From positions 91,566 to 155,565 of the forward strand of contig CAWAGQ010000009.1 in NCBI GenBank assembly GCA_963781585.1: DNA of 64,000 nt, given 5' to 3'. This DNA is from an uncultured Gemmatimonadaceae bacterium. Lineage in GTDB: Bacteria > Gemmatimonadota > Gemmatimonadetes > Gemmatimonadales > Gemmatimonadaceae. Below are positions 33,269-58,859 of this stretch, one piece after another (the stretch's first letter is position 1; each line of letters opens with the position of its first letter). The translations under genes and the position numbers were made by a program. The notes under the pieces were generated by a model that had not been told where the DNA came from, ran no database searches, and was given only the letters and a program-made list of their open reading frames with translations.

Positions 33269-34305
33269 TCACTGAGAGGGAAGCAGAAACCGTTCGAGAT
33301 GCTCCAGATCATCTGCGTCACGGCGCGCGACATAGACGTGGCCGGTGCCGAATCCAACGACCCGCGTGTTCGCAGGGAAGGTCACGCGCTGCACCAGTTG
33401 GCCCGAGTCGCCAATGACATCGTAGAGCGGACGCTTACCAGGCACGACGGTTCGTTTGACCCATAGTCTACCGTCCTCCGCGAACATGGCGGCCTTGTCG
33501 AGAAAGGGCGGAAGGAATGGCGGCCAGGACCGCGGCTCCCGGTACGGTGGCGTCTGGAGGGTCGCGGAAGAGCCACCATCCCGCTGGACACTCAGTGTTG
33601 GGCCGCGCTCGTTGCGCGCATCACGCCATTCCTGCTTCACTCGTTCGTCGACCTTTATCGGTAGAAACTGCATCGGACTCCCGTCATGACGCGCGCCGGT
33701 TGTCCCCACGATGTCCACCCGGTACGGTTCCGGTCGCACGATGGCTACACGACCATCGCGGCGAACGGCCCACAGCGTGGTCGCCGCAAATGGGGGCACC
33801 ACATAACCGGGAGCGGCCGCGACAATTCCTGAACCAATTACTCGACTTCCCGGTCCGAATCGGTTAGGAATGAACGCCACGGTATCGGCCTGGCAGGTCG
33901 AGGTCCAACGCTCGATGGCCGCAGAATCGGTCGCCAGTAGGCCCTCACGCTCACTCCTGGCAGTGGGCGCCGCCTCAGAATAAAGCCGACCCTTCGCGTC
34001 CGCTGCGACAAACACCGATGACCAGGTCGTCACTGCTCCGGGACAGTCGCGACCGCTGCGGTCCGGCAAGAATCCGCCCGCCGATCCCGTTAACTCACCC
34101 CGTTAGGCTGTACAGAAAAGCGGAGCCACTTCTCGAAGACACTTCCGTCTCCGAGTGCGCGGACTTGCGTGATGCGGGTGAACGATCCTTGGAACTCGGC
34201 TTCGACATGATCGACCTCGGCCGTCGGAGTCGACTGCGCCGCGACATCCTTCGTCAGCATCACCTCAAGAACGCCCAGGATCAGGGACGTGAGCATAATC
34301 CGCAT
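33269..34305 (-). pseudogene. Exported beta-propeller-like protein, split/internally deleted
   Basis: N-terminal part 34090-34305 (signal, FTRITQVRALGDG); C-terminal part with WPPFLPPF..DGRLWV..YDV..RDADDLEHLERF like the other cargo propellers. Confidence 0.6.
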
Positions 34306-34317
34306 CCGTTCTCTTTT

Positions 34318-35030
34318 TCACGTTCCTCCCTCCCCTGCTACGCGGCCACCGAACGGTGACTTGTCGGCAATAAGAGCCGTGATGACGCGAAGAACTTCGT
34401 CGCGTGATGGTGACGCACCGAACAGCCATCCATTGACAACGACCGTGGGCGTTGCATTGAGGCCCAGGCTGTCTGCCAGCGCAAGTCCTGCGTCAATTCG
34501 CGGCATTCGCGGCGGGTGATGCACGCAGTCGTTGAATGCTATGGTGTCCTTCATCCCGGCTTCTCGCGCAAACGAAGCCCATGATTTGAGACCGAGCGAA
34601 TCCTGCTTCTCAAAGACAATACCAATGAACGCGGCCAGCATCGATTGCTTGTCAGCACACTCAGCAGCCGTAGCAGCAGGCCGAGCGAACCGGTGAATCT
34701 TCAACGGAAAATGAACGAGGACGAGAGAGACATTCTGACCGAAGCCGCTCAGCACCTGGTGGGATGACCGTCTCATGGTAGTAGCGACATGGTGGGCACT
34801 CGAGATCCGTGAACTCCGCGACCTTCACCTTGGCTGCTCATTACGTACTTGAAGTCCGCTATTCACTATTGACATCCACAGTCGCGCCGGGAGTAGGCGC
34901 GGAGGAGGAATGCGAACTGTGGTGGTTTGCCCTGCGACCCTCGATCGCGACGCCGAAAGATAGGGCAAACTCACCACCGTGCCGGTCCAGGACTGACGGG
35001 ACACATGGATCCGCCCATTGTCGGGAAATG
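34318..35030 (-). pseudogene. DsbA/thioredoxin-fold protein, frameshifted
   Basis: AKVKVAEFTDLECPPCR (~34770-34830) out of frame with VHFPL...ATPTVVVNG; 5' end approximate. Confidence 0.7.
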
Positions 35031-35274
35031 ACATCGAGACTCGCCTCCGGCGTCCTGAACACGGTCTGCGAAAAGTCGACCAGGGAAAACCTGCGCGGCG
35101 GCGAGCGCCCCGAAGGCGCAACGACGGCCAGCCGGCCGAGGTAGCTGCTCGCCACGACGATGAGCTCCTGCTGCCGGGGGCAGGCGATTCTCGCGCTTAC
35201 AAAGGGTTGCGCCAGAGCCAGGTTCTAATCGACGCCTGGATCGGGGACGAGGTTCACAACGCGAGCAAATCGCT

Positions 35275-36720
35275 TCAGCAACTCAGCGAACGACGCGTGC
35301 CAACTGACCATCCACTCGCCATGCCCGCATCATAAGGCCTGCTATCAATACTTGATCGTTGTGTTGCCAGAATCTCCTTCACGACGTCACGTGCGCACTT
35401 CCAGACGAGGCCATGACCGGCATCTCTAATGATGAGCACGACGGCACGTGACAGCTCCCCCGCACTGCTAACCAGTTCGGCAGGCGTTATTGGATCCAGC
35501 TCACCGACCATAGCGATGATCGGAATGACCTTTTTCAAGGGGTGCCGAGGAGTGAAACCAACGCGAGGCCATGCACTACATGCTGCCAGCAAGTCAAGCA
35601 CGAAGGCGCGACTCCAAGACGCCGAGAGGTCTACGAGGCTCGTCTCCTTAGGCGTCGCGCGAATGTTCTCGCACAAAGTCGAAAGCACGGCGATACCGTT
35701 TTGCCTCGCCAGTTCTTCCCTTAAGTCATCGACCGCGATTTCTAGGGCTACTCTCGATCCTCCCTGCCTTGTCGATTCCAGCAGTCGCACAAATCGTGCT
35801 CGTGCCTGCGGATCGGCGAGCTGCTCCTGCAACAGCAGCGCAAGACCCCGAGCCGTGATCGTGACTACTGTGTCGCCACTCCGGCTACTCGTCCGCACAT
35901 GGACGACCATTGGTGACACCTGCAGGCGATCGAGCGCCATCTCGATTCCCTTGGAAAGAGTTTCATCGCCCAAGGTGCACGAACGGTCGACGGAACAGAG
36001 TTCTTGCATACGCATGACAGTGCGGCGCGTAGCGAAAGGCACCTGAGCAAGCCAGGGCGCAAGTGTTAGAGGCGAGTGAAGTACAAGTCCGCTGAGATGC
36101 TCCGGATATGCGGCACCATAAAGAAGCGCGGCACGCGCACCCGACGACAGGCCGTAGATAATGACGTGAGACAGACCGAGCCGCGTTCTCACGAGTTCCA
36201 GATCATCGGCCAGCGCTTGGCTTCCGTATTTCGATGCCTCGCTCGACGGACCGAGACTGTCACGACACGCTGCGACGCTTCGTGGGGCAAACCGCCGCGT
36301 TCCATCGAAATAGAGTTGACATCTCGCCCCACTCGAACGACCGGTGCCATACGAGTCGAACAGTACGAGATCGTGTCTGGCAAGGAGGTCTCCTAGCGCG
36401 GCCTCGGCAAACTCAAGTTCCTGGGTGCCGGCGAGCCCGGGGCCGCCTGGAAGAAAGACAATCGTCGGAGCATCGGGGTGTTCCTCGTCTGCTCTCCTGC
36501 GCATAACGAAAAACGAGTCAACCGCCTCCGGCCGACGTTTGGTCTCGTCGATACCATGGACGAAGAAACACTGGATGGCCGCGGCACGACCTGCCAACGA
36601 TGCAGGGCACTCTCCTGACCGCCCATCGCCGACAGGCGCGTCTAAACCCCGCATTCCTACGCTTGGGGCCAAGCTGAACAGTAGCCGAGCGATTCGGCTG
36701 ACGGCCGGACCAGACATCAT
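35275..36720 (-). CDS. Alpha/beta hydrolase, S33/TAP-like peptidase
   Basis: LPGGPG, GLSSG nucleophile elbow, GELDPITP, DAGHG triad. Confidence 0.75.
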   Translation of the reverse strand: MMSGPAVSRIARLLFSLAPSVGMRGLDAPVGDGRSGECPASLAGRAAAIQCFFVHGIDETKRRPEAVDSFFVMRRRADEEHPDAPTIVFLPGGPGLAGTQELEFAEAALGDLLARHDLVLFDSYGTGRSSGARCQLYFDGTRRFAPRSVAACRDSLGPSSEASKYGSQALADDLELVRTRLGLSHVIIYGLSSGARAALLYGAAYPEHLSGLVLHSPLTLAPWLAQVPFATRRTVMRMQELCSVDRSCTLGDETLSKGIEMALDRLQVSPMVVHVRTSSRSGDTVVTITARGLALLLQEQLADPQARARFVRLLESTRQGGSRVALEIAVDDLREELARQNGIAVLSTLCENIRATPKETSLVDLSASWSRAFVLDLLAACSAWPRVGFTPRHPLKKVIPIIAMVGELDPITPAELVSSAGELSRAVVLIIRDAGHGLVWKCARDVVKEILATQRSSIDSRPYDAGMASGWSVGTRRSLSC

Positions 36721-36812
36721 GCGGCCGGAACGAGTCCGTCGCCTGGATGGCTAGAGGTCAGCATGAGGCAGATGTCCGCCACGCGTCGGTTGCAGCCTTG
36801 GGGCCCGTGGGC

Positions 36813-37342: not shown

Positions 37343-38551
37343 CTAGGGAACTGCGCTGCTACGTGTAACAAAAGCGGGCCATCGTGCGCCATCCTCGCTT
37401 TGCATGATGCCGATCAGCTCTGTCTCGGTGATCTCGATCGGCCTGAAGCCGCGTGGAATTCGGAGGTCTCGCTCCACGCTGTGTATGTCCAGAAGGGTCC
37501 ACGTGCGGCCGAAGCCGAGCGCATCGTCGCGAAGGCTGAAGTGCTCGAGCCACAAATCACCACGCCGACTGCATAACAACCTTACAAACCGTGGTTTCTC
37601 CAGGGGAAAATCACCTCGTTGTCGACCTAATATCTCCCGCCCTCGCTTGCGGGCTCCGACGGTGTCTCCTCTCGAGTCGCGCGCCTCATTCACAAGGAGC
37701 TCGCCGAGAAAGATTTCCAGCTCGTCGTCACTGAACAAGCCAGGGAGTGAATCGACACGCGGTATGGCTATCCGGTCGATCGTGTCTCCGCTCAGTCGCA
37801 GCTTGTACAGCATCGTGCCTAGTCCATCATAGACAGCCACTGAAGAGTCGGGGCAGACGTCCCAGAGAGGTAACGGCACTAGAGACGTGGCATCCTGGAG
37901 TACCCGTTGCCGGCCGCTGATGTCCCGAAAGCTTACTATCGTATCGCGCCAACCGGACGAGATATCGGCGACCATCAGTATGGGCCGAAGCAGATCGGCA
38001 TTCGTGCCCACGTTGCCGGGATGTTCTGCGAAGACCACCACCGACCCAATGAGCTTGGCGAGAAATGGATCGCCGAAACCTGTAGATTCCACGTCGGATC
38101 GCACATATCCCCTGACAACCGAGAGGGCGGCAACCGTTCTCGCTGTGCCAAAGGTGTCCACCGCGAGAACTTGCTTTCGCGCAACATCCCAGACGAAGGG
38201 CGGGCCGTCTCCGAGGGCACCACCAAGAAATCGCCAAGGTTTGAAGAAGTCGGTCGGCCCACGTCCATGCCGGCCGTTCTGGAACAACAAGTGCCCTGTG
38301 GAGTCGTATCGCTTGAGGTACGGCTCTGCATCGGCCAGTACCCACCATCCTCCGTCCGCGGAACGACGAATGTCGCGAGTGTCGAATGCACTTGAATCAA
38401 CTATGATGGCCCGAGCCGGCCCTAGCTCCTGAACTGTCAGGGCCAGCTCCTTCTGTCCAGTGCATGCAAGGAAGCATGACAACGTTAGGAGCATACGAGG
38501 ATCGGCACGGTTCTCCCGCATGGGCCCAGTACCGGTGTGAGGGCGCTTCAT
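37343..38551 (-). CDS. Exported beta-propeller-like (NHL/6-bladed) putative lipoprotein
   Basis: FLAC lipobox-like; GRHGRGPTDF; FPLEKPRF..GDLWLE. Confidence 0.65.
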   Translation of the reverse strand: MKRPHTGTGPMRENRADPRMLLTLSCFLACTGQKELALTVQELGPARAIIVDSSAFDTRDIRRSADGGWWVLADAEPYLKRYDSTGHLLFQNGRHGRGPTDFFKPWRFLGGALGDGPPFVWDVARKQVLAVDTFGTARTVAALSVVRGYVRSDVESTGFGDPFLAKLIGSVVVFAEHPGNVGTNADLLRPILMVADISSGWRDTIVSFRDISGRQRVLQDATSLVPLPLWDVCPDSSVAVYDGLGTMLYKLRLSGDTIDRIAIPRVDSLPGLFSDDELEIFLGELLVNEARDSRGDTVGARKRGREILGRQRGDFPLEKPRFVRLLCSRRGDLWLEHFSLRDDALGFGRTWTLLDIHSVERDLRIPRGFRPIEITETELIGIMQSEDGARWPAFVTRSSAVP

Positions 38552-39129
38552 CGCGCTGCCCGCAAGGTGCTGTCAACTGCTTCCAATCGCGATCCGTGAT
38601 CCATCAGCACGAGTTGTCCGCTGGGATTCACGAGATAGAGCCACGGCGTTCTCCCCGTCAGTGCGCGTTCCGCTGACTTCGGCGCGAAGTGCTGCACGGA
38701 TAGCAAGTCGGTTCGCCAGCCATGGGTGTCCCTAAACACCGATGCTTGCGCAGGAGCGTCTCGTGTCATTGCAATCGTCTGCAGACCTTCCTTGGGCGTC
38801 TGCAGCCACTGACTCCACTTCGGTGCCACTGCTTCGCAGTGTGCGCACGTCGACGAAAAGGCCAAGACGAGCGTCCACTTCGGAGAGTCCTGTAGACGCA
38901 CCGTATCGGGCCGCCCAATGCTGTCTTGGCCAACCAACGTCGCAATGGTGTCACCGATGATGAATGACCTAGGGCGCTCCACACCGGGATCCCGCCTCAC
39001 ATGATTTGAATAGACCGTCACGATTGCGATCATCTGGAGCGCGAGAAGGCCCCACAGGAGGCAGTTTGCTCTCCGCACCGGCAGGCTCCTTGGGCTTGAC
39101 CCGGGTATCTCAAGTGATCCCTGCATCAC
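38548..39129 (-). CDS. Membrane-anchored TlpA/peroxiredoxin-like thioredoxin-fold protein
   Basis: FSSTCAHC CxxC; RTPWLYLVNPSG; N-terminal TM segment. Confidence 0.75.
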   Translation of the reverse strand: MMQGSLEIPGSSPRSLPVRRANCLLWGLLALQMIAIVTVYSNHVRRDPGVERPRSFIIGDTIATLVGQDSIGRPDTVRLQDSPKWTLVLAFSSTCAHCEAVAPKWSQWLQTPKEGLQTIAMTRDAPAQASVFRDTHGWRTDLLSVQHFAPKSAERALTGRTPWLYLVNPSGQLVLMDHGSRLEAVDSTLRAAR

Positions 39130-39411: not shown

Positions 39412-39458
39412 ATGGTAGGCTTCCCTCGATGCGCTGTCAATGAAATGTCCCACCGCGT
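39412..39458 (-). promoter_or_regulatory. Conserved cassette promoter/operator, copy A
   Basis: 23-bp invariant element running into TTGACA-17-TACCAT. Confidence 0.75.
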
Positions 39459-39593
39459 GACAACGGAGTCCGTCCGAACGCCGTGGGATCGCCGCGACGG
39501 GTGCGGCATCCGCACGAGGCGCAGGAGCAGCCCGTGAGGGAAGTCAGCCAGTCGGCAGTTCGCTCATGCTACACGCCACGCCTGTGGCGCTCA

Positions 39594-40407
39594 TCACTCG
39601 CGCCGCACCCACCACTCGATCGCCCTCCGGAGGCCGGCGTCGCCGCGCAACTCGCCGAACGAGACCCCGGCATGGCGATGCACGAAGTTCTGCAGCGCCG
39701 GTTCGCTCGAGAAAGCCGAGATCCCGGGCCACCTCGACCGCCGTGACCGAGCTGCGGGCACACGCGGCCCCGACATGAAGAAACCGCCCAGCATCGATCA
39801 CCTGGTGCGCATCCCGCCACCCGCGGCGCTGCACCTCCCGCAGCACCGTCCGGCGATTGACCGCAAACTGACCGGCCAGGCTTGCGGACCAAGGTTGTTG
39901 CGTGCGGGGCGGGCTCACGGCGAGCGGACGGTAGGCATTCCGTGCGCACCACGATTCCTCCGCACAGCCACGCGACCAGTGCGCGTATCGCAGCAGACCG
40001 GCGAGACTGGCGGGCAGGACGTGCCGGAGCCGCTGCATGACCTGATTGCGCAACTCAGCCTCTCCCGTCGCGGCCAGCCACAAGTCATCGATGGACGCGC
40101 CCGCGAGTTCGGTGATGCGGCCCGTGGACAGATCCTCACGCCCAATGCACAGGACCACGTGCGCGAGCGGGTACCGGTACCGGAAGGCGATCAGGTCGTC
40201 GCCGGACAGTCGGCCCCCGTCCGTGTGTGTCCCGACCAGCACCACCATACGTTCACCCACGAGCGTCGGGAACCCGGGCACTTCGTCCAGCCCGTGCACA
40301 ACGGCCACGGCCGCGGGCACACCGCGCAACGCTCGGCACACCTGTTGTCGGAGCAGCGGATCGCCGACGGCCACGCAGACGCGGGCAGGACGCGGATCGT
40401 GCCACAC
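39594..40407 (-). pseudogene. Receiver-like + AraC-type HTH regulator, copy 1 (frameshift near 39710)
   Basis: LAGQFAVNRRTVLRE..RFLH..VARDLGF / SEPALQNFVHRHAG; one extra base versus copy 2. Confidence 0.7.
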
Positions 40408-40414
40408 GCGCGCC

Positions 40415-40507
40415 TCACGAGCACCGTGGCTCTGTCGTGCCCCCCCCCACCCCACGCCGCGTCCCTCTCTGCTCCGAATCGTGCGCGAACGAACTGGTGT
40501 CCAACAT
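40415..40507 (-). other. Putative uORF/leader peptide (30 aa) before the AraC regulator
   Basis: GGAGG RBS; MLDTSSFAHDSEQ...; homologous uORFs at 48577-48672 and 53198-53278. Confidence 0.4.
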
Positions 40508-41894: not shown

Positions 41895-42350
41895 TCAGCG
41901 CCCACTGCCCACCGTGTCCCGCCTGACGTCCTGCATCCAATCGGCGCGGACGGGCGACTTCGTCGAGTCGCGACGAAAGCGGATGGCGATGGCCCATGGA
42001 CCTGGGGTGATGAACCGCATGTTCGCGTAGTAGCTGCCCAGCTCGGCGCCGGGCACGAGGGTGTCGGAATACGACGCCAGATCGAGACCGGTCGCGAACA
42101 GCGCGCCGCTACCACCTTCGATCGGCTCACCCGTCCTGGCGTCGCGGACAATGACCTTGTACCGCACCACATCCCGCACGTGCGGCGGCAGCGGCTCGGC
42201 CAGTACCCGAATCGAGAGATCGTCGGCGAACAGGATCGTGGAGTAGTCCGGTGACTCGGGAGCGCAGCACAGGGCGACCACTGCCAGAGGGAACACCAGC
42301 TGCGCGGCCAGGGAATTTGCCGGGGAGCGCCTGCGAGGGAGCCGCTTCAT
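41895..42350 (-). CDS. Hypothetical exported protein, possibly YtkA/FixH-like Ig fold
   Basis: Start MKRLP overlaps the upstream stop; YKVIVRD.RTGEPIE, G.YYA..RF..PGPWAIAI. Confidence 0.55.
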   Translation of the reverse strand: MKRLPRRRSPANSLAAQLVFPLAVVALCCAPESPDYSTILFADDLSIRVLAEPLPPHVRDVVRYKVIVRDARTGEPIEGGSGALFATGLDLASYSDTLVPGAELGSYYANMRFITPGPWAIAIRFRRDSTKSPVRADWMQDVRRDTVGSGR

Positions 42351-43486
42351 GGTGTCCACTTCCAGGCGTAGACCACCAGCTCCAGCCCTATTCCGCTTCT
42401 CGTCGCAACCAGAAGCGAGGCATGACGTGCGGCTGCGCGGACTTCGATCGATGACCCGGGTTGCGTCATGCTCATGAACCGCCCGAGAGTGTCGTATACC
42501 ACCAGCAGCCGGCGCTCCGATGCGGGATCCACAAGGGTCTGCGCCACGGCCCGGTCGAGAGCGACCGCGGGAAGTGCGTCCCAGGACCGAAACGTCTCGG
42601 CATACGCCTGGGTGCCGAAGGACAGCGCTCCCGTGGCGTGAGCGCGGCGGGCTCCGGCGCTGTCCAATCGCATCCAGCCAAAGGGCCACTGTGCGGAACT
42701 GAGAAGGATGCCACCGCGTCCGCGCGCGAGGACCAGGTGTGAAACGTTGTACGCCCTGTCGAAAAGGGCATCGAACGTCACCGCGAGCACTGGACGGCCG
42801 CCAAAGCGAAGCCGTTCAAGCTGCACGGGCTGGTCTCGAGAGGCGAGGAGGATCGTCCAGGAACCATCCGATTGGGCAGCACCGGCAATGCGGCGTCCTT
42901 CGTGCCGCATGTGCTGCGCGACACAAGATCCGTCGTCTCGGATGTGGAAGAGTGCCTGACGAGTGCTGTCCACGATCTCGACCAGGGAGGTACCGGGAAC
43001 GAACGAGGCGGCGGCAACGCCCTCCAGGCGGCCCTGGCAGAGTGCGCGGCCTGGATGCGTCCCTGCGCGCACGAGGTAGACTGCGGAGAGCGTCCAGTAG
43101 AGCAGCCCGGTATCCTCCGAAACGTCAGCGCCGGCGATCACCCGGTGCTCAATGGGCACCGTGAGGAGCTCGTTGAGCTCCAGCTCCTGATGCCGCGGGA
43201 CAACAGGCCGATAGGTGGGACCTTCACACCCTGTAATGACAGCGGCTGCCAAGGAGAGCACGATCGCCACTCGATAAGACTGACTGGGCGTCACCTTCGC
43301 AGTGCGCGACCACCGCGTGGGGCGGTGTTGCTCCTGGCCTGATAAGGGAGTACTGCTGCACAGATCATGGTTGGGGTCCTGCCTCTGCGCCTGGCAGTGA
43401 ATCACCGGTTCTCCATTCGGGACCAGACTACCCATGCCAAGCACGCAGCCGGGACGCAATTGAGGAATCGATCCGATCCACATCAC
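42347..43486 (-). CDS. Hypothetical lipoprotein, possibly a divergent beta-propeller
   Basis: VITGC lipobox (likely start GTG 43294); short beta-strand repeats such as LVVYDTLGRF. Confidence 0.5.
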   Translation of the reverse strand: MMWIGSIPQLRPGCVLGMGSLVPNGEPVIHCQAQRQDPNHDLCSSTPLSGQEQHRPTRWSRTAKVTPSQSYRVAIVLSLAAAVITGCEGPTYRPVVPRHQELELNELLTVPIEHRVIAGADVSEDTGLLYWTLSAVYLVRAGTHPGRALCQGRLEGVAAASFVPGTSLVEIVDSTRQALFHIRDDGSCVAQHMRHEGRRIAGAAQSDGSWTILLASRDQPVQLERLRFGGRPVLAVTFDALFDRAYNVSHLVLARGRGGILLSSAQWPFGWMRLDSAGARRAHATGALSFGTQAYAETFRSWDALPAVALDRAVAQTLVDPASERRLLVVYDTLGRFMSMTQPGSSIEVRAAARHASLLVATRSGIGLELVVYAWKWTP

Positions 43487-45336: not shown

Positions 45337-45401
45337 CACACACCACTCTCCGAACGATGCCGCCGACTCTGTGACGACAGGTGCACCGCGGGGGCTTTCA
45401 G

Positions 45402-47579: not shown

Positions 47580-47626
47580 ATGGTATGCGCCCCCGGATGA
47601 ACTGTCAATGAAATGTCCCACCGCGT
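47580..47626 (-). promoter_or_regulatory. Conserved cassette promoter/operator, copy B
   Basis: 23-bp invariant element running into TTGACA-17-TACCAT. Confidence 0.75.
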
Positions 47627-47754: not shown

Positions 47755-48569
47755 TCACCGGCGCCGCACCCACCGCGCGATTGCCTTCCGGAGACCGGCT
47801 TCGCCGTGCAGCTCGCCGAAGGTGACGCCAGCGTGGCGATGCACGAAGTTCTGCAGCGCCGGTTCGCTCGGAAAGCCAAGATCCCGGGCCACCGCCACGG
47901 CGGTGACGATGCCGCGGGCACACGCGGCCCCGACATGCAGCAGCCGTCCGGCATCGATCAGGTGCTGCGCGTCGAGCCACCCGCGGCGCCGCACCTCTCG
48001 CAGCACGGTCCGGCGATCCACGGTGAACTGGCCAGCCAGGCTTGGGGCAGCAGGGTGTCCGCTGCGGGGCGGGCTCACTGCCAGCGGCGCCGGTAGGCAT
48101 TCCGTGCGCACCACGATTCCTCCGCACAGCCACGCGACCAGTGCGCGTATCGCAGCAGACCGGCGAGACTGGCGGGCAGGACGTGCTCGAGCCGCCGCAG
48201 CACCTGCTCGCGGAGATCCTCCTCGCCCGTCCCGGCCAGCCACAAGTCATCAATCGACGCGGTCGCGAATTCGGCGGCACGGCCCCTGGACAGAGGTTCA
48301 CGCCCGATACACAGCACCACGTGCGCGAGCGGATGCCGGTGCCGGAAGGCGATCAGCTCGTCGCCGGTCAGCCGGCCACGGTCCGTGTGTGTCCCGACCA
48401 GCACCACCAGACGTTCACTATCGAGCGTCGCGAGCCCGGGCACTTCGTCCAGCCCGTGCACGACGACCACGACCGCGGGCACACCGCGCAACGCTCGGCA
48501 CACCTGTTGCCGGAGCAGCGGATCGCCCACCGCGATGCAGACACGGGCAGGACGCGGATCGGACCACAC
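47755..48569 (-). pseudogene. Receiver-like + AraC-type HTH regulator, copy 2 (frameshift near 48090)
   Basis: Paralog of 39594-40407; two extra bases after NAYR split it into ORFs 48075.. and 47755.. Confidence 0.7.
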
Positions 48570-48576
48570 GGGCGCT

Positions 48577-48761
48577 TCACGAGCACCGTGGCTCTGTCGT
48601 CCTCCCCCCCCCCACCTTACGCCGCGTCCTCCCCTGCTCCGAATCGCGCGTGAACGAACCCTCATCCAGCATGGTGCCTCCCACTGCTTCGCGCCGGGAG
48701 CTGGCGTGCGGCACACTCGGCTGCGCTGGTTCCAAGATGTGGGTTCGAGCCCCGCGCGCAA
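48577..48761 (-). promoter_or_regulatory. Promoter 2 + leader + uORF (48577-48672), copy 2
   Basis: TTGCGC-16-CATCTT at 48734-48761; uORF MLDEGSFTRDSEQ...EPRCS. Confidence 0.5.
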
Positions 48762-50796: not shown

Positions 50797-53193
50797 TCAC
50801 GGCGCCCGCGTCCACAATGCAATGGTGCCACACGCCGCACCCACGCCGCCGAAGCGCATCGGCGTGCTGGCCGGTCCCGCGTAGATCTCGATCGCCTCGA
50901 TCCCGTTGGGCGCAAAGTCGTCGATGTTCGGCGGATCCTGGCCCTTCCCCGGCTGGAAAATCACCGTGCCGTCAAGGTACACCTGGTAGTAACAGTGGCC
51001 CGAGCGATTGGCGGAACGCGTGCTCTCCAGAAAGACCGACCCGTCCGCCCGACGCGCCAATCGTACTCCGGGAACCGAACGGATAACACTGCTCAGGGGC
51101 CACTCCTCGTGCCTTGCCAGGTCGGCACGGGTCAGGAACCTGCCGCCCGCATTGGTCGCGCGCCGCTCCTCGAACCCGCGCATCTTGGAGGCTACCGGCG
51201 TGGTCGTCACCGCCACGCCCGGCAGCTCCGTGACAGCCAGCGTCAGGACGAACTCGCGGACAGAGTCGTTAGGCGCGGGGAGCGTGATGCGCTCGACAAC
51301 CGGCCGGTAGCCCACCTCGCGCACCACCACGGTGTACGTGCCGCGCGGCAGCATCGCAACAGCGAAGGTCCCGTCCACACTCGTCCGCACCGAACGCGAC
51401 TGTCCCAGAAGGAGCACCTCCGCCGAGGCGGCAGGACGCGCCATCGAGTCCCGTTTGAGGAGCACTCGGCCGCGGAGCGTAGTCGATCCGGTATGGGCCG
51501 AATTCAGGGCCAGCGTCACCTCGACCACGCTCGCAGTGTCGTCGTCCGCCAGGCTCTCCTCCACCCTCGTATCGCCGAGCGCCGCCCGCAGCCGCACCAT
51601 GTCCTGCCGCGGCGGGCGGCAGAACGTCACGATTCCTGCCTCGTCCGATTCGGTCTCCATGGTGGAGTCCCCGACGGCTGCGCTCACGAGGTTCCCCGAC
51701 GCTTGCATGGCAATCCGTCGCCACGACATCACGGCGCGCGCCCCACGCACAGGCGCCCTCGTGAGCGAGTCGACGAGATACCCGATGATGAGCTGCTGCC
51801 GATCACGCCGCGCGGTTTCGTTCCCGCAGAAGCGCGCGCGCAGCGTCCCCGCGCTCGCCACCGCCCAGTCGGCCACGGTCGCCTGGCCTCGCGACAGCAC
51901 GACCTCACGTTGCGCACCCTCGACGCTGAAGTGCGCGAGCCGCGGGTCGTCCGTGGTGAGGAGGTACCGCCCCGCCAGCGGCGTTTGCAGCCGATACCGG
52001 CCCGCGCTGTCGGTCGCCGCGCTGGCTGCACCACCGGCCAGCAGCAGCCGGGCGTTGGCGAGGGGTGTGCCGTGCAGGCTGTCGAACACCACTCCGGTCA
52101 GCGCCGGCGTGTCGGCCAGCGTCTCCCCAGCGCTCGGCAGGGCAGCCCAGCCCCCCTCCTCGCGGTAGCCGAGGAGACTGTCACGCGCCTGCACCGTGAA
52201 TCTCCCGACCCGCTCGGCGCCTACCCGCACCATCCGTGGCAGTCGGATGTACCATTGCCCCACAATCCACTGGCCGTTCGGCAGCGCCACGAACTCCAGG
52301 CGCCCGCCCGGCTGTCCGCCGTCCGCGCCTGCCGGGGTCCGCGTGTACGCGTAGTCCAGCAACCGCAGTTCGCTCGTCTGCCGATCGACCCAGAGCACGC
52401 CGGTGACGTCACTGACCTTCCGGCCCGGGGCCGGCTCGAACGATAACCCGATCAGCGTCTGCGCCCCCGCGACCTCTTTCATCCCGAAGCAGTGGTCTTG
52501 CGTGAAGCGCTCCGAGAGCAGGAGCGCCGCGTCCGGCGCGAAGTATGTGAGTTCGCCGTCCACTGGGTGGATGAAGCCGAGGCGTGAGAGTTCCTCCGCC
52601 GGCGCGGTCAGGAACGGCGATCCACCCTGGACTGATCTGGATCCAGTGGTTTCGGCCACCACGCGCAGCGCCTGGTCGAGCGTGCGGGTGTAGCGCCACA
52701 CTCTGATCGGAAGCGCCTGGGGCGCGGTCAGCACCGTCGCATCCAACGCCTTGCGCACTTCCGCCCAGAGCCGGGCTGCCAGGGTGCCGGCACTGGGGTC
52801 CAACTTGCAGGTGCGCCGCGCCCGGACGGCGACCCTCTCGAGCGTAAGCGGCCGCGGGACGAGCGCGATGCGCACCGTCTGGGGTTCCCCACGGAGCACC
52901 AGCACCGCCGAGCTGTCGGTGGCGTAGCCGATCCGTTCGGCGCGCACGCGGACTCGTGCGCCTAACGTGCCATGCAGGGTGGCACTCCCCTGTTCATTCG
53001 TGAGCGCGCCGGTGTGCCGCGACCCGTCGGCGAGTGTCAGCGAGACGATCGCGCCTACCAAGGGCGCGTCGGAGTCGTGGTCGACCACTTCGACACGGAC
53101 GGCCTGGGCGCACAGTGGCTGCGCCTTAATCGCCACCATGAACGTGACGAGGAAAAGCCTGCGACAACCGTGGTTCATCGAGTTTGGGCACAC
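50797..53193 (-). CDS. Long multi-carboxypeptidase-regulatory-domain + TonB plug-like protein (no barrel)
   Basis: Repeated G.V.D...P...A/RIGY modules; GFEERR; IEAIEIY.GP.STP..FG..CGTI.LWTR. Confidence 0.75.
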   Translation of the reverse strand: MCPNSMNHGCRRLFLVTFMVAIKAQPLCAQAVRVEVVDHDSDAPLVGAIVSLTLADGSRHTGALTNEQGSATLHGTLGARVRVRAERIGYATDSSAVLVLRGEPQTVRIALVPRPLTLERVAVRARRTCKLDPSAGTLAARLWAEVRKALDATVLTAPQALPIRVWRYTRTLDQALRVVAETTGSRSVQGGSPFLTAPAEELSRLGFIHPVDGELTYFAPDAALLLSERFTQDHCFGMKEVAGAQTLIGLSFEPAPGRKVSDVTGVLWVDRQTSELRLLDYAYTRTPAGADGGQPGGRLEFVALPNGQWIVGQWYIRLPRMVRVGAERVGRFTVQARDSLLGYREEGGWAALPSAGETLADTPALTGVVFDSLHGTPLANARLLLAGGAASAATDSAGRYRLQTPLAGRYLLTTDDPRLAHFSVEGAQREVVLSRGQATVADWAVASAGTLRARFCGNETARRDRQQLIIGYLVDSLTRAPVRGARAVMSWRRIAMQASGNLVSAAVGDSTMETESDEAGIVTFCRPPRQDMVRLRAALGDTRVEESLADDDTASVVEVTLALNSAHTGSTTLRGRVLLKRDSMARPAASAEVLLLGQSRSVRTSVDGTFAVAMLPRGTYTVVVREVGYRPVVERITLPAPNDSVREFVLTLAVTELPGVAVTTTPVASKMRGFEERRATNAGGRFLTRADLARHEEWPLSSVIRSVPGVRLARRADGSVFLESTRSANRSGHCYYQVYLDGTVIFQPGKGQDPPNIDDFAPNGIEAIEIYAGPASTPMRFGGVGAACGTIALWTRAP

Positions 53194-53197
53194 GCTC

Positions 53198-53370
53198 CTA
53201 CCCAACGGCAGTTGTCTTCATTCGCCCCGAGCGTCTTCCCGGTTCCGAATGGTGCACGAACCAACGGGCGTCCGACATGGCGCCTCCCGCTGCTGCTGCG
53301 CGCCTGGAGCTGGCGTGCGGGTTACTCGGCTGCGGTCACTCCAAGATGTGGGTTCCATCGGCGTGCGCAA
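53198..53370 (-). promoter_or_regulatory. Promoter 2 + leader + uORF (53198-53278), copy 3
   Basis: TTGCGC-16-CATCTT at 53343-53370; leader as in copies 1/2; uORF MSDARWFVHHSEP... Confidence 0.5.
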
Positions 53371-53582: not shown

Positions 53583-54767
53583 TCACTGCCTGCGCACGCG
53601 ATAGAGCGCGACAGTCTCGGGACCATCCTGGGGCGCGATGCGCAACAGAAGATTCAGATTATCCGCGTGCAGCACACGGGAGTCAGCAGGCAGATTGATT
53701 CGACTGAGAACCTTGCCACTCATGTCGAGAACGAGCCAGGCCGCCGTGTTTGTCGAGCTTCTTTCAAAGGTCTCTATCCAGACGCGATCGAGTTCGTCAA
53801 CCACCAGGCGGCGCAGATAACGAACGCCGCTCGGCACTGGAGCTGACGCGTACACACGGGTGAGCAGTTGGCGAACCCGCGCGGTGGGCTCGTCCGCAAC
53901 TCGCGCGACTAGGGCGGCTGCGAACTCGGCCGACGTGACCCGATGAGGCGGGAGGGGAACGTTGACACGGCTCGAGTCGCGGGACATCAGCTGATAGATG
54001 GTGATCCAGGACGAGTCATTCCGCGCGACGACTGCGATGTGGGGACCGGCTGCGGCCAGCGTTGTCAGGCCGAGTGGAAGGTCACCATACCCACCGACCT
54101 CCCGTGAGACGTAGCGTTCCGTTCCCGGAAACACGCCGATGGTATCCGATCGCAGGAAGTCCTGATCGATGGATATCAGCAGACCCGGAGTTCGGAATAG
54201 TCCTGACTCTTTGGGCAACGCCCCCGGCGAATCGAAGAAGGCGATGATCCCCCCGTCCGTGCGGCAGGAGAGGGGCCGCAAGACCACAAAAGGCGTCGGC
54301 GCCTTGCGAACCAGTGCCACTTGTCCGGTGGAGTCGAAACGAGTCAGTCGCAACGCAGGCCCGTCGAACGCCGCAAACGCTTTCGGGCCACAGTCACCCA
54401 CCCAACTCAGCTCGCGAAATTCCCCCGGTCCGCTTCCGTTTCGGCCCACGACCCGAGTTATTCGCCCCGGCGAGCGGAAGAACCGAATGCTTCCTGTCGT
54501 CGCGTCTCCGACCGCAATCGTGCCATCGGCAGTGACGAAACCTCCCGTGACAACTCCAAACTGCTGGCTGGTGTCTTGCGACAAGCGGCCCAGAACCTGG
54601 ATCGGGGGTTCGACCAGTGTCCATTGCGAGACCTGGCGGTCTTGATGGGCAGGTCGGAGGGCCACGCACAGCAGCCCGGCTGCAAGCTTTCTCCTTGCCC
54701 TTACGAGCATGAGCAGCGTTGCCTGCTTTCGTTGGAGAGCAGAGTACACGAGAAGTTCCTGCCGCAT
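53583..54767 (-). CDS. Exported beta-propeller-like (NHL/6-bladed) protein
   Basis: VGRNGSGPGEFREL; LTRFDSTG; LVVDELDRVWIE; ETVALYRV. Confidence 0.75.
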   Translation of the reverse strand: MRQELLVYSALQRKQATLLMLVRARRKLAAGLLCVALRPAHQDRQVSQWTLVEPPIQVLGRLSQDTSQQFGVVTGGFVTADGTIAVGDATTGSIRFFRSPGRITRVVGRNGSGPGEFRELSWVGDCGPKAFAAFDGPALRLTRFDSTGQVALVRKAPTPFVVLRPLSCRTDGGIIAFFDSPGALPKESGLFRTPGLLISIDQDFLRSDTIGVFPGTERYVSREVGGYGDLPLGLTTLAAAGPHIAVVARNDSSWITIYQLMSRDSSRVNVPLPPHRVTSAEFAAALVARVADEPTARVRQLLTRVYASAPVPSGVRYLRRLVVDELDRVWIETFERSSTNTAAWLVLDMSGKVLSRINLPADSRVLHADNLNLLLRIAPQDGPETVALYRVRRQ

Positions 54768-55081: not shown

Positions 55082-55127
55082 ATGATAGTGCGTATCGGTG
55101 AGCCGTCAATGAAATGTCCCACCGCGT
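55082..55127 (-). promoter_or_regulatory. Conserved cassette promoter/operator, copy C
   Basis: 23-bp invariant element running into TTGACG-16-TATCAT. Confidence 0.72.
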
Positions 55128-55523: not shown

Positions 55524-57944
55524 TCATGGGGCCCGCGTCCACAACACGATCGTCCCGCAGGCCGCACCGATGCCGCCGAAGCGCATGGGCGTGCTGGCTG
55601 GCCCCGCGTAGATCTCGATCGCCTCGATCCCGTTCGGCGCAAAGTCGTCGATATTCGGCGGATTCGGCGCCCTGTTCGGTTGATAGACCAGAGTTCCGTC
55701 GAGGTACACCTGGTAGTAGCAGGCGGTGCGCCTCTGTTCTTGGAAGCCTGCTACGCCCTCGGAGCGCGTGCTTTCCAGAAAGACCGTGTTGTCCGGTTGC
55801 CGCGCCAAGCGCGCGCCCGGCACCGAACGCAGCACGTCACTCAGGGGCCACTCCTCGTGCTTCGCCAGCTCGGCGCGCGTGATGAACCGGCCGCCGGCAT
55901 TGGTCAGCCGCCGCTCCTCGAAGCCCCGCATCTTGGACGACACCGCGGTCGCCGTGACCGCCACGCCCGGCAGCTCCAGGGCAATCGGCGTCAACACGAA
56001 CTCGCGCACGGAGTCCGCCGGCAGTGGGACCGTCACCCGCGCCAGCACCGGCCGGTAGCCGACGTCGCGCACCAGCACGGTGTACGTGCCGCGCGAAAGC
56101 GCGGCGAAGGCGAACGCACCGTCTGGCGTGGTGCGGGCCGACTTCAAGAGCCGGGGCAGCAGGACCTCCGCCGCCGCCGCTGGACGCGTCGCCGAATCGG
56201 TCTTGATGAGCACCCGCCCGCGCAACGTGGTCGATCCGGCCGCCGCGGTGCTCAGGGCCAGCCGCACCTCCACCACGCTCGCGGTGTCGTCGGCTGGGAC
56301 GCTCCGCTCCACACGCGCCCCGCCGAGTTCCGCCCGCAGCCGCACCACGTCCTGCCGCGGCGGCCGGCAAAACGTGACGATCCCCGCCTCGTCGGATTCC
56401 GTCTCCACGGTGGAGTCGCCGACCGCCGCGCTCACCAACCGCTCCGACGCCTGCACCGCCAGGCGCCGCCACGCCATCACCGCCCGCGCGCCGCTGACGG
56501 GCGCGCCCGAGGCCGAGTCGACAAGATGCCCGATGATGAGTTGCGGCCGGTCGCCCCGCCCCGTCTCCTTTCCGCAGAACCGCGCGCGCAACGTCGCCGC
56601 GCTGGCCACGGCCCAGTTGGCCACGGTCACCTCGCCGCGCGACAACACCACCTCGCGCTCGGCCCCCTCGGTGCTGAAGCGCGCGAGCCGCGGGTCGTCC
56701 GTCGTTAGGCGGTACCGCCCCGCCAGGACGCTGCGCAGCCGGTACCGGCCGGTGCTGTCGCTCACCGCGTCGGACACGCCACCGGCCAGGCTGAGGTGCG
56801 CGTTCGCGAGCGGCCCGCCGTGGAGGCTGTCGAACACGAGCCCGGTCAGCGTCGGCTGGTCGGCCGCCGCGGCTCCCCTCCTGGACTCCGTCGCAGCCCA
56901 GCCCCCTTCTTCGCGGTAGCCCAGGAGGCTGTCCCGGGCCGGCACGCTGAAGGCGCCGACGCGCGCGGCGCCCACCCGCGCCATCCGCGGCAGCCGGATG
57001 TACCAGCGTTCGACGATCCACTGCCCGTCAGGCAGCGCGGCGAACTCGAGGCGCCCGCCCGCCTGGCCGGGCTCCGCGCCCGCCGGCGGGCGGGTGTACG
57101 AATAGTCCATCCACCGCAGCTCGCCGGTCTGCCGATCGACCCACAGCACGCCGGTGACATCGCTGACTCGCCGACCGGGCGCCGGATCGAACGCCAGCCC
57201 GATCAGCGTCTGCGATCCCGGCACGTCCTTCACCCCAAAGCAGTGGTCCTGCGCGAATTGATCCGAGAGCAGGAGCGCCGCATCTGGCGCGAAATATGTG
57301 AGGTCGCCATCCACCGGGTGCGCGAAACCGAGACGAGACAGTTCTTCGGCCGGTGCCGTCGTGAACGGCGCCCCAGCGGGGACGGATCGCGTCGCGGTCG
57401 TCTCGGCCACAACCCGCAGCAACCGGTCGAGGATCCGCGTGTAGCGCCAGACGTCGATCGGGAGGCGTTGCGGGGCGGAGAGGACGGTGGCATCCAGCGC
57501 CTTGTGCACTTCGCCCCAGAGCCGCGCCACCACCGTACCAGTATTGGGGTCCATCCTGCACGTGCGTGTGGCGCGGACGGCGACTTTCTCCAGCAGCAGC
57601 GGCTGGGGCACCAGCGCGATCCGCACCGACTGCGGCTCCGCCGTGAGCTCGCGGGCCGCCGCGCTGTCAGTGGCGTAGCCGATCCGTTCGGCCCGCACCC
57701 GGATCCGTGCGCCTAACGTGCCATGCAGGGTGGCACTCCCCTGCTCGTTGGTCAGCGCGCCGGTGTGCCGCGACCCGTCCTCGAGGACGAGCGACACGAT
57801 CGCGCCCACCAGCGGCGCGCCCGACGCCCGATCGACCACCAGAACCCGGACGTCCTGCGCCAAAAGCGGCTGGCTCGCCATCACAACCATAAACGCAACG
57901 ACGGAAAGCTCGCCGCGAGCGAAATTCATCGCGCGTGGGCACAT
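55524..57944 (-). CDS. Long multi-carboxypeptidase-regulatory-domain + plug-like protein (paralog of 50797-53193)
   Basis: Collinear high similarity with 50797-53193. Confidence 0.75.
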   Translation of the reverse strand: MCPRAMNFARGELSVVAFMVVMASQPLLAQDVRVLVVDRASGAPLVGAIVSLVLEDGSRHTGALTNEQGSATLHGTLGARIRVRAERIGYATDSAAARELTAEPQSVRIALVPQPLLLEKVAVRATRTCRMDPNTGTVVARLWGEVHKALDATVLSAPQRLPIDVWRYTRILDRLLRVVAETTATRSVPAGAPFTTAPAEELSRLGFAHPVDGDLTYFAPDAALLLSDQFAQDHCFGVKDVPGSQTLIGLAFDPAPGRRVSDVTGVLWVDRQTGELRWMDYSYTRPPAGAEPGQAGGRLEFAALPDGQWIVERWYIRLPRMARVGAARVGAFSVPARDSLLGYREEGGWAATESRRGAAAADQPTLTGLVFDSLHGGPLANAHLSLAGGVSDAVSDSTGRYRLRSVLAGRYRLTTDDPRLARFSTEGAEREVVLSRGEVTVANWAVASAATLRARFCGKETGRGDRPQLIIGHLVDSASGAPVSGARAVMAWRRLAVQASERLVSAAVGDSTVETESDEAGIVTFCRPPRQDVVRLRAELGGARVERSVPADDTASVVEVRLALSTAAAGSTTLRGRVLIKTDSATRPAAAAEVLLPRLLKSARTTPDGAFAFAALSRGTYTVLVRDVGYRPVLARVTVPLPADSVREFVLTPIALELPGVAVTATAVSSKMRGFEERRLTNAGGRFITRAELAKHEEWPLSDVLRSVPGARLARQPDNTVFLESTRSEGVAGFQEQRRTACYYQVYLDGTLVYQPNRAPNPPNIDDFAPNGIEAIEIYAGPASTPMRFGGIGAACGTIVLWTRAP

Positions 57945-58090
57945 GCTCCGATCAATAACGGCGGGCTTGACTCGACCGGAGGAGCGACCTTGCCGCAATT
58001 CCTGTACGCATTTATGGGCCAGACTTGCGACCGGTAATCTCGGAGCGCCAAAAGCGAGCCGAGTCCGTTTACGGAGTGGAGCCACCCGAG

Positions 58091-58354
58091 TCATTCGGGG
58101 AGGCAGTCCACTCTCACCTCGACGGGTGAGCCACAACTCGGGTCGTTATACGGACAATCTTGAGCACGACTGTACCCCTGGCAGAAAGCCTGGCAGTCAT
58201 CGTCATACTCGTAATGATCGAGGCACATGATTGGGGGCGGAACGCATATAAAGCATTCGTAGGACCTGGCGGACAAGGGCGGTGCCCCTGCCAAGTCAAT
58301 GCTCCCCAGCATCACGACTGCCGCCGCAGATGAAAGCAGTCTTGTCTTCCACAT
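58091..58354 (-). CDS. Small secreted Cys-rich peptide P6 (8 Cys)
   Basis: RBS GAGG before MWKTRLL; signal ending LSA; mature RSYECFIC...VRVDCLPE with 8 Cys. Confidence 0.72.
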   Translation of the reverse strand: MWKTRLLSSAAAVVMLGSIDLAGAPPLSARSYECFICVPPPIMCLDHYEYDDDCQAFCQGYSRAQDCPYNDPSCGSPVEVRVDCLPE

Positions 58355-58731
58355 AGATGCCTCGCTTAGCAAGGAGTTGACTGCCGATGTTGACGAATTC
58401 GTAACCGCGGTGTGATACCTCCATGGGTTCCTCGATCTGGCCGGCCAGGCCACTCTTTTCCTGCGGCGCTTTGATCGGAGTGACTTCGCGATGAGTCGCC
58501 TACTTGATCGCTTTGGCTGAGACGCACAACGCTTTCTCCCAAAAACCTTGAACTCGTGTCCGGCTCTCCCACGCAAGTGCGAGCACGCCAGCTATGGCGC
58601 CCGCGATGCGCCGCTCACTAGCGCCGCCGAACCCATGACCGGTTCGGAGATCAGGCTGCGTGGCAGAATCCACCGGCAGTCAGTGGATTACCAAGTCGTG
58701 TTGGACTGCGTAAAGTTCCGTAACGGCGACC

Positions 58732-58778
58732 ATGATCGCGCCTTTCCGGTGGGCTGTCAATGAAATGTCCCACCGCGT
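58732..58778 (-). promoter_or_regulatory. Conserved cassette promoter/operator, copy D
   Basis: 23-bp invariant element running into TTGACA-17-GATCAT. Confidence 0.7.
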
Positions 58779-58859
58779 CACTCGACGTATTCTCTCCGGA
58801 AGGACGTTCCATCGCCGCCCGGAGTGCCCGCTGGTCGAGACGCCAGACTAACCCGTGAG

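Follow-up and report, generated by a model that had tools for sequence, protein, structure and literature searches.

We analysed a stretch of 64,000 nucleotides (the window) from contig CAWAGQ010000009.1 of an uncultured Gemmatimonadaceae bacterium. From about 33.2 kb to at least 62.6 kb it holds a distinct island, in which six genes for small cysteine-rich precursor peptides (P1 to P6) are arranged in four modules, each behind an exact copy of one promoter-like box (Table 1). We propose, with a probability of about 0.45, that the products are Sec-exported, disulfide-locked mini-proteins, made from co-regulated operons and folded by Dsb enzymes that the operons themselves encode. The region had been singled out in an earlier reading of the letters and their translations, made without database searches (the sequence-only reading), as a set of such peptides with beta-propeller partners.

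All six open reading frames (ORFs) are on the minus strand and encode 70-87 amino acids (aa), with a hydrophobic N-terminal leader and 5-8 cysteines confined to the last 41-56 residues. This is the set described in the sequence-only reading, and the leader of P5 proved to be weak. Good ribosome-binding sites precede four of the genes. A filter for a leader plus at least four cysteines recovered five of the six (P5 was missed), with one other match in the rest of the window and five in 457,879 bases of related loci; the peptide cluster is therefore far denser than background. P1 and P2 are paralogs (39% identical, E 5e-14) with the common pattern CC-x10-CC-x2-CC-x6-C-x5-C, and so are P3 and P4 (40% identical, E 5e-17). 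Both pairs keep the cysteines and little else.

A profile of P3 and P4, run with HMMER against 1,835,955,588 representative proteins, found five relatives, 73-77 aa long, with E values from 4.3e-7 to 2.5e-4. Their leaders end in (A/V/S/G)(Y/F)A, and all eight cysteines are invariant across the seven aligned sequences (P3, P4 and the five relatives). Because these remote relatives have the leader and the eight cysteines, sequence comparison settles that P3/P4 is a real, rare and conserved gene family. The two paralog pairs, together with these relatives, make it very likely that the peptides are real, exported and disulfide-bonded. Acidity is common to all predicted mature peptides (net charge -1 to -9, pI 4.1-5.0) and to the five remote relatives, and it argues against membrane-lytic action and for a specific target.

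None of P1 to P6 matched a family in Pfam (E up to 0.01) or NCBIfam, in keeping with the sequence-only reading, which had recognised no family in their cysteine frameworks. Raising the Pfam limit to E 10 added only an unrelated nec1 match, to P4. By these searches the peptide families are unnamed and rare, and the island appears to offer at least three such families, all of exported, disulfide-rich mini-proteins. The fold check suggested at the outset yielded a model of P4 (predicted local distance difference test, pLDDT, 69.6), for which Foldseek found no match in the PDB at E up to 0.001. A Protein Atlas query with P1 (best score 0.84) gave a lead only, and P4 had only chance-level matches in a plasmid collection, inside a Sphingobium aminotransferase gene (E 0.1).

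The 23-bp box (GTCAATGAAATGTCCCACCGCGT on the plus strand) occurs four times with no mismatch, just as the sequence-only reading had reported. None of 100 shuffles gave any match, and the window holds no further copy at up to three mismatches. Aligned on the minus strand, the four sites read ACGCGGTGGGACATTTCA-TTGAC(A/G)-N16/17-(T/G)A(C/T)CAT. The box is invariant whereas its flanks have a mean column identity of 67%, and the flanks of copies 1 and 2 are barely alignable with those of copies 3 and 4. Such invariance amid diverged flanks, which in copies 3 and 4 are no longer recognisable, indicates selection on the box. A consensus promoter scan, which covered positions 33000-47800 only, called copies 1 and 2 (TTGACA-N17-TACCAT). 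It gave three promoter-like sites against 2.5 expected, a call that is weak alone, and the case for a promoter is made by the four-fold invariance. The box looks like a sigma-70-type promoter with an invariant 18-nt upstream activator site, which is probably bound by an AraC-type activator. The first gene is a peptide gene after three of the four boxes (P4 after box 2, P5 after box 3, P6 after box 4), and the order after box 1 is thioredoxin, propeller, P2, P1. The leaders from box to first gene in modules 1 and 4 contain no convincing extra small gene. RNA folds after P4, P1 and P6 were no better than those of shuffles (z -0.93 to +0.79) and gave no sign of an attenuator.

The upstream edge of the box, the 9-mer ACGCGGTGG, is found nine times in the window against 1.75 expected, a count that 0 of 100 shuffles reached. 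Eight sites are on the minus strand, all in the island (39450, 40599, 42711, 43310, 47618, 48763, 55119 and 58770), and a lone plus-strand site is at 30471. Outside the four boxes, each araC copy has the 9-mer upstream, and it also occurs near the two lipoprotein genes at 42-43 kb, a pattern that would fit a regulator half-site with autoregulation. Between the two AraC-type genes, 26, 19 and 41 substitutions fall on the first, second and third codon positions, so the third is favoured. The C-terminal piece of copy 2 matches HTH_18, a helix-turn-helix (HTH) model, at E 2.4e-5 over profile positions 1-76 of 80 (25 bits, below the cut-off of 33.6). A separate 92-nt repeat (82-100% identical) lies at 40520-40611, 48684-48775 and 53293-53384, upstream of both AraC-type genes and of an 802-aa Plug protein. 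Two of its three copies start, on the minus strand, with the 9-mer, and the repeat may be a second regulated promoter.

The sequence-only reading counted three CxxC oxidoreductases, of which two are intact and the third is frame-broken at its CPPC motif. The intact protein encoded directly after P3 matches Thioredoxin_4 (58.2 bits, cut-off 23.2) and DSBA (44.2 bits, cut-off 25.6), has a hydrophobic N-terminal anchor by eye, and has ScsC/DsbA-like proteins as its nearest PDB relatives. Its long ORF (44668-45459) overlaps P3, and the gene probably starts at 45339, not at 45459. The second, a thioredoxin-fold protein, stays below the cut-offs (in brackets) of AhpC-TSA with 20.2 bits (26), Thioredoxin with 17.3 (23.5) and TrbB with 27.9 (132); the stop of its gene overlaps the start of the following propeller gene by four bases. 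The 152-aa ORF of the interrupted gene still matches Thioredoxin_4 at 44.2 bits, its CPPC having been lost to the frame break. The S33-like peptidase of the sequence-only reading turned out to be an alpha/beta hydrolase with a TAP-like end, and its observation that radical-SAM, YcaO, LanM and C39 genes are absent held for all 27 ORFs scanned.

The third component of the modules is a set of propeller genes. Propellers adjoin peptides in modules 1 to 3, and P6 is followed by a CarboxypepD_reg+Plug protein, the arrangement given in the sequence-only reading. The five full-length propeller paralogs are mutually distant (22-32% identity), and all have leaders that are signal-peptide-like or lipoprotein-like by eye. 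One of the five passes the PF17170 cut-off and the other four have no Pfam match, but all five match a profile built from family relatives, with scores of 270-428. Database relatives number 46 at E up to 1e-3, 19 of them with PF17170, and the few named ones are Gemmatimonadales. The two closest propeller relatives are 48-50% identical. Searched against solved structures, the family profile matched NHL domains (E 2e-34, over three to five stretches), peptidyl-alpha-hydroxyglycine lyase (E 4.6e-6) and the exported Bacteroides protein BF0058 (4raa, E 1.2e-5). An AlphaFold2 model (pLDDT 75.2, predicted template-modelling score 0.77) retrieved the NHL domain of Brat (E 3.9e-11, TM 0.51/0.65) and again BF0058 (E 1.2e-9) in Foldseek. 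Profile and model agree that the window propellers are of the six-bladed NHL/DUF5128 kind, a class assignment made from sequence and fold matches, and the exported propeller-like proteins of the sequence-only reading thus gain a family. A plasmid collection gave no match to the propeller. Gemmatimonadota encode a large family of such propellers (Atlas clusters of 62-553 members).

Most NHL propellers serve as binding modules, and by analogy peptide binding by those of the island is plausible. A complex prediction for mature P4 with the propeller at 45689-46810, using both alignments, gave a score of 0.02 (mark 0.32) and weighs neither way. The sequence-only reading was reminded of neighbourhoods of NVEALA peptides and propellers, which we take to occur in Bacteroidota and for which Pfam presumably holds the NVEALA model. 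That likeness extends to the propellers, which match DUF5128 (PF17170) and BF0058 by sequence and by fold. It does not extend to the peptides, which match no Pfam family, so the NVEALA neighbourhood is not reproduced in the island. A literature search on NVEALA and DUF5128 found no publication.

The same enzymes could form an envelope thiol or copper stress regulon, in which the ScsC-like and TlpA-like (ScsD-like) proteins would work with the NHL propellers under an AraC-type sensor and the cysteine-rich peptides would be sacrificial thiol or metal buffers. Among the best-matching solved structures for the DsbA-like protein are 'suppression of copper sensitivity' and 'copper/metal resistance' proteins, and acidic, cysteine-dense peptides could, from their composition, bind metal. 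The four-base overlap of thioredoxin (CAHC) and propeller genes mirrors the architecture of NHLRC2, which PMC6107167 describes as a fusion of a thioredoxin-like domain and an NHL propeller, in that same order and with bacterial orthologs; the modules are fused there and are separate genes in the island. For the bacterial orthologs, PMC6107167 found no operon context that is conserved. Sequence searches with the island thioredoxin found no kinship with NHLRC2, only weak matches to PDI/TXNDC5. Eight invariant, evenly spaced cysteines beside a DsbA-type enzyme speak for structural disulfides and not for free thiols, and the family matches of the thioredoxin gene all lie below their cut-offs. The ORFs scanned contain no DsbD/ScsB-like gene for a supplier of reductant, and no copper ATPase, multicopper oxidase or CusF/CopC-type gene. 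We regard a stress regulon as quite improbable.

The peptides might also be small subunits or tight inhibitors of neighbouring enzymes and not free effectors, either by pairing, as a disulfide-rich light chain, with a propeller heavy chain or by inhibiting the S33 hydrolase or foreign proteases in the manner of knottins. The trio of peptide, propeller and thioredoxin genes recalls methylamine dehydrogenase, with its mauB/mauA/mauD layout and its own thioredoxin-like MauD. The inhibitor variant is suggested by the TAP-like hydrolase gene that follows P1 and by PDB matches of the P3/P4 profile, 14 of 16 of which are squash-type knottin trypsin inhibitors or engineered knottins (E 0.47-2.7), with the alignment falling on the C-x-C-x-PN-x2-C stretch; two P3/P4 relatives have Pfam Squash matches at E 0.6-1. 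All of these knottin matches are sub-threshold, and we do not assign the peptides to the squash-type knottins. Neither are peptides or propellers assigned to the amine dehydrogenases (MADH, QHNDH), as Pfam links them to no subunit of these enzymes and the ORFs scanned include no radical-SAM gene and no haem protein of the MauG kind or other. The propeller relatives are NHL proteins, for the most part binding modules, yet the peptide-amidating lyase is among the matches; most of these relatives stand without a peptide. A subunit or inhibitor role likewise strikes us as quite improbable.

The composition of the island sets the modules apart from their surroundings. The window has a G+C content of about 67%, and some stretches of the island are at 59-62%. 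Segmental duplications of 77-98% identity span a backbone of araC, higBA and CarboxypepD_reg genes, and toxin-antitoxin genes are found through the island (HigB/HigA, a FitA-like antitoxin, a DUF6036 nucleotidyltransferase and Phd). G+C at third codon positions (GC3) is 0.59-0.77 in the peptide, propeller, Dsb and hydrolase genes (P5 is highest at 0.77, the others at most 0.68), as opposed to 0.81-0.86 in the repeated CarboxypepD_reg and CarboxypepD_reg+Plug genes, which are like the rest of the chromosome. We grouped the former as cargo because this atypical GC3 is common to them. The island therefore reads as a series of backbone modules, each made up of a CarboxypepD_reg gene with higBA, araC and the box, and compositionally foreign cargo lies behind each. 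The Plug proteins after P6 and after the third propeller (53583-54767) are backbone, not cargo.

A scan of 185,579 species genomes with the propeller profile gave 27 loci, of which 24 are labelled Gemmatimonadota and three are metagenome-assembled genomes (MAGs) labelled Gammaproteobacteria. One of them, L004, from a Gemmatimonadaceae MAG, carries a 58-aa precursor with six cysteines behind a GGAGG site. Directly after it comes a membrane-anchored DsbA-like gene (CRYC) whose product is 37% identical to that of the window (E 8e-31), with a CarboxypepD_reg gene and then a propeller further downstream. Another, divergently transcribed propeller is also present, and propellers lie on both sides of the peptide-DsbA pair. 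GC3 is 0.63 in the peptide gene and 0.67 in the DsbA-like gene, against 0.85-0.91 in the CarboxypepD_reg and cyclase genes. L004 is also the only one of the 27 loci with a DsbA-like relative. It has no comparable repeated box, and an exact copy of the box core is absent from all 27 loci. None of the loci holds a relative of P1 to P6, and tblastn with the six peptides returned nothing below E 0.09. The informative comparison set comes to about six loci, with one positive; L026 (2.2 kb) is too short to judge.

A quick tree of the propellers, with 14 of the 45 database relatives and without two weak propeller matches (score <30), joined the window copy at 33269 and L004:6079-7293 as sisters on long branches (Shimodaira-Hasegawa-like approximate likelihood-ratio test, SH-aLRT, 97). 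Both lie downstream of a DsbA-like gene. The window propellers do not form one clade, and the label needs six changes for eight rows. A second, well-supported clade comprises the central propellers of L005-L011, L013-L017, L019-L025 and L027 together with L018:11408-12730. Its members are mostly Longimicrobiales or 'Gemmatimonadetes bacterium', with one Candidatus Palauibacter and three labelled Gammaproteobacteria. The loci scanned from this clade have housekeeping-like neighbourhoods, with the propeller directly after a tetratricopeptide repeat (TPR) protein of about 630 aa or an M20 peptidase, and these propellers may differ in role from the island paralogs.

These comparisons bear on whether the island encodes a joint system at all. 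It could instead be a hypervariable, decaying region that has accumulated members of a hugely expanded propeller family, various exported genes and toxin-antitoxin modules, the four promoter copies being leftovers of the segmental duplication of a backbone unit. Only the peptide and the DsbA-like gene would then belong together, with the propellers as bystanders. The duplications do cover the araC/higBA/CarboxypepD_reg backbone, toxin-antitoxin genes are scattered through the island and four genes have frame breaks. The propeller family is large, and 12 of the 27 loci have two or three paralogs per 20 kb, which makes chance adjacency easy; the 26 propeller loci without such peptides and the dispersal of the window propellers over the tree fit as well. 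A mere pile-up does not readily account for a box that stayed invariant while its flanks diverged, for an atypical GC3 common to peptide, propeller, Dsb and hydrolase genes and unlike that of the backbone, or for the tight gene packing with its thioredoxin/propeller overlap. Nor does it account for the propellers that again flank the peptide-DsbA pair in L004, or for the sister grouping of one of them with the window copy. We consider this explanation unlikely.

A stronger claim than ours would be that each peptide has its cognate NHL/DUF5128 propeller in an effector system of Gemmatimonadota that is as yet undescribed. Each exchangeable cassette would then consist of a knotted acidic peptide, a propeller as its immunity protein or receptor and a private Dsb enzyme behind the activator-controlled promoter, and the promoter module itself would be copied around with the higBA addiction pair. 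The sequence-only reading had named co-occurrence of peptide, propeller and Dsb in other genomes as a test. The order of peptide and DsbA-like gene with a propeller nearby does recur in L004; the pairing is confined to that one locus of 27 and is not a property of the propeller family. Cognate pairing is distinctly unlikely in our view.

Several observations weigh against the reading that we favour, in which operon-encoded Dsb enzymes fold exported mini-proteins. The leaders were called with our own heuristic and by eye, and P5 is the weakest candidate, with an odd number of cysteines, no K or R in its leader and an E within the hydrophobic stretch. The profile search proposed in the sequence-only reading, productive for P3/P4, found no outside relative of P1/P2, since that profile retrieved no protein beyond P1 and P2 themselves from a word-indexed set of 5.8 billion proteins. 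The P3/P4 profile had no match at all there, P3 and P4 included, and standard gene calling has therefore skipped these two. Acidic peptides are atypical beside the cationic antimicrobial peptides, and this counts against the antimicrobial option of the sequence-only reading. Its proposal of co-regulation by the adjacent AraC-type proteins keeps the promoter-like box with an activator site; AraC-type genes lie upstream of boxes 1 and 2 only, each frame-broken relative to the other. The four frame-broken island genes (34318-35000, DsbA-like; 33269-34305, propeller; 39544-40455 and 47758-48761, AraC-type) reflect either decay of the island or indel errors of the assembly, and no outer-membrane exporter is encoded in the island. 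Outside the window, 26 of the 27 loci have no leader-plus-cysteine peptide near the propeller, including L001, the closest propeller relative read (37%). Adjacency of peptide and propeller recurs in L004 only. In the tree, 20 of the 27 central propellers fall in the separate clade, with other conserved neighbours (TPR protein, M20 peptidase, galactokinase, symporter).

As we see it, four operons in a compositionally foreign, partly decaying island would be fired from copies of one sigma-70-type promoter, each giving one or two precursors of 70-87 aa. A precursor would be exported via Sec and its leader cut by signal peptidase I. The remaining 41-56 residues would be locked by three or four disulfides through the operon's membrane-anchored DsbA/ScsC-like oxidase, with the TlpA-like thioredoxin possibly correcting wrong pairings. 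The resulting stable, acidic, knotted mini-proteins would act as effectors in the periplasm or outside the cell, most likely as receptor-directed antagonists or signals rather than as membrane-lytic peptides. The co-transcribed, exported NHL/DUF5128 propellers would most simply be peptide-binding partners serving as carrier, receptor or self-protection.

The principle of a Sec-exported, cysteine-rich peptide with a dedicated Dsb enzyme is already known. The heat-stable enterotoxins STa and STb of Escherichia coli have precursors of 72 and 71 aa, which are exported by Sec and whose cysteine-rich C-terminal part is oxidised by DsbA to give two or three disulfides (PMC6356903). As with the peptides proposed here, the product is small, stable and non-cationic and is released from a Gram-negative cell (PMC6356903). 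The likeness is one of mechanism and not of identity, as we find no sequence kinship and nothing about the island peptides suggests an animal target. The enterotoxins use the housekeeping DsbA and leave through TolC, whereas the island has a DsbA-like gene in the operon and encodes no exit route.

Gene clusters with their own oxidoreductases are closer in layout. The sublancin cluster sunA-sunT-bdbA-sunS-bdbB encodes BdbB (PMC6391423), and TMcin clusters encode the DsbA-like TmcD (PMC13712780). These papers describe the precursor gene as first in the operon and a cluster-encoded DsbA/Bdb-type enzyme as forming the disulfides, much as is proposed for the island. Those clusters come from Gram-positive bacteria, have leaders that dedicated transporters or proteases remove, and contain further modification genes. 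The island peptides are acidic, and their leaders look like ordinary Sec signals; in the 27 ORFs scanned no Pfam family of an ABC/C39 exporter or modification enzyme occurs, and we do not class the island as a bacteriocin cluster, be it class II or one for ribosomally synthesised and post-translationally modified peptides. A literature search did not find the promoter-cassette layout or its link with DUF5128/NHL propellers in print.

Gemmatimonadota are abundant in soil and barely studied, and our literature search found no secreted peptide effectors described for them. Operons that bring their own oxidative-folding enzymes should make the mini-proteins easy to express and test, stable knotted peptides could be useful as scaffolds, and the invariant box would be a direct handle on the inducing signal. 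If the propellers bind the peptides, the large orphan DUF5128/NHL family would gain its first function, as peptide binders. If peptides and propellers are cognate pairs, the cell would have a repertoire of secreted mini-proteins with which to compete or to recognise kin. If no such reading holds, the adjacency of peptides and propellers will have been shown to be local to this genome and one relative.

Table 1 Features of the island discussed in the text (positions in the window)
Feature	Position	Strand	Details
Propeller, interrupted	33269..34305	-	71-aa signal-peptide ORF + 266-aa ORF in another frame
DsbA-like gene, interrupted	34318..35000	-	CPPC in another frame, just upstream of 152-aa ORF 34318-34776
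Alpha/beta hydrolase, TAP-like C-terminal end, S33-type	35275..36720	-	481 aa, follows P1
P1	36813..37025	-	70 aa, 41-aa mature part, 8 Cys, AAGGAGG ribosome-binding site
P2	37064..37288	-	74 aa, signal peptide, 43-aa mature part, 8 Cys, GAGGAGG
Propeller paralog, NHL/DUF5128-type	37343..38551	-	402 aa; lipobox-like FLAC motif by eye
Thioredoxin-fold protein, membrane-anchored, TlpA/AhpC-TSA-like	38548..39129	-	193 aa, CAHC
Promoter box 1	39436..39458	-	ACGCGGTGGGACATTTCA + TTGACA, N17, TACCAT; -35/-10 at 39440..39412
AraC-type regulator copy 1	39544..40455	-	frame parts from copy 2 within the HTH; HTH E 0.025
Small lipoprotein	41895..42350	-	about 151 aa; sole match YtkA-like, E 0.3, non-significant
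Lipoprotein	42347..43279	-	about 310 aa, matches no named family
Propeller paralog, NHL/DUF5128	43598..44671	-	357 aa, lipoprotein-like leader
DsbA/ScsC-like oxidoreductase, membrane-anchored	44668..45339	-	223 aa, CGAC, directly after P3
P3	45402..45662	-	86 aa, 8 Cys, GAGGG far upstream
Propeller, NHL/DUF5128	45689..46810	-	373 aa, signal peptide; PF17170 23.4 bits (cut-off 22.9)
P4	47046..47270	-	74 aa (start at the ATG that follows GGAGG) or 78 aa (start at the ATG further upstream); about 51 aa when mature, 8 Cys
Promoter box 2	47604..47626	-	TTGACA-N17-TACCAT, 47608..47580
AraC-type regulator copy 2	47758..48761	-	frame break after about residue 176
CarboxypepD_reg+Plug backbone gene	50797..53205	-	802 aa, 3 CarboxypepD_reg + TonB-receptor Plug, no barrel; host-like composition
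Propeller paralog, NHL/DUF5128	53583..54767	-	394 aa
P5	54822..55034	-	70 aa, 5 Cys, first after box 3
Promoter box 3	55105..55127	-	TTGACG, then TATCAT; no adjoining AraC gene, only higA fragment 55197-55279
Paralog of the 802-aa CarboxypepD_reg+Plug protein	55524..57956	-	about 810 aa, 74% identical; follows P6
P6	58091..58354	-	87 aa, 56-aa mature part, 8 Cys, net charge -9, first after box 4
Promoter box 4	58756..58778	-	TTGACA, then GATCAT
Propeller paralog beyond the range of the sequence-only reading	61732..62613	-	293 aa

Further CarboxypepD_reg proteins, with one to three domains, are encoded at 49835-50833, 59311-60327 and 41412-41774; the 332- and 338-aa paralogs are 88% identical to each other, and there is a 120-aa C-terminal fragment. 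Two members of 261 and 269 aa lie in the ordinary chromosomal part (15798-17407). The higBA pair within the repeated backbone consists of a HigB-like toxin (PF05015, E 2.6e-12) and a HigA antitoxin (TIGR02607, E 9e-31). Related stretches are found at 48985-49651 (plus strand), 40921-41235 (plus strand) and 55197-55279. Copy 1 has kept higA and lost about 250 bases at the expected place of higB, and the third stretch is an 83-nt piece of higA, 87% identical, that adjoins box 3. Past 58780 there are further addiction-type genes, for a FitA-like ribbon-helix-helix antitoxin (60439-60699, minus strand), a DUF6036 nucleotidyltransferase (60899-61375, minus strand) and a Phd/YefM antitoxin domain (62612-63169, plus strand). 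The 310-aa lipoprotein was considered as a propeller relative, and no kinship was detectable (hhalign probability 0.2). PADLOC defence models matched 0 of 20 proteins, apart from the hydrolase, which matched a generic 'TAP-like protein' model, and Rfam and tRNA scans of the window gave no match.

Positions 1-33,000 of the window have a GC3 of 0.8-0.9 and ordinary chromosomal content, with MacB-type permeases, GH31, M28 peptidases and a pyrroloquinoline quinone (PQQ) dehydrogenase. At 25717-28006 a gluconate 2-dehydrogenase subunit-3-like gene precedes an ORF whose only match is to the C-terminal domain of GMC oxidoreductases; the N-terminal GMC part may lie in another frame or be missing. The two MacB-type permeases (MacB_PCD + FtsX) are encoded at 1659-4109 and 7609-10203 on the plus strand, about 30 kb from the island. 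MacB-TolC in E. coli is the exporter of heat-stable enterotoxin II.

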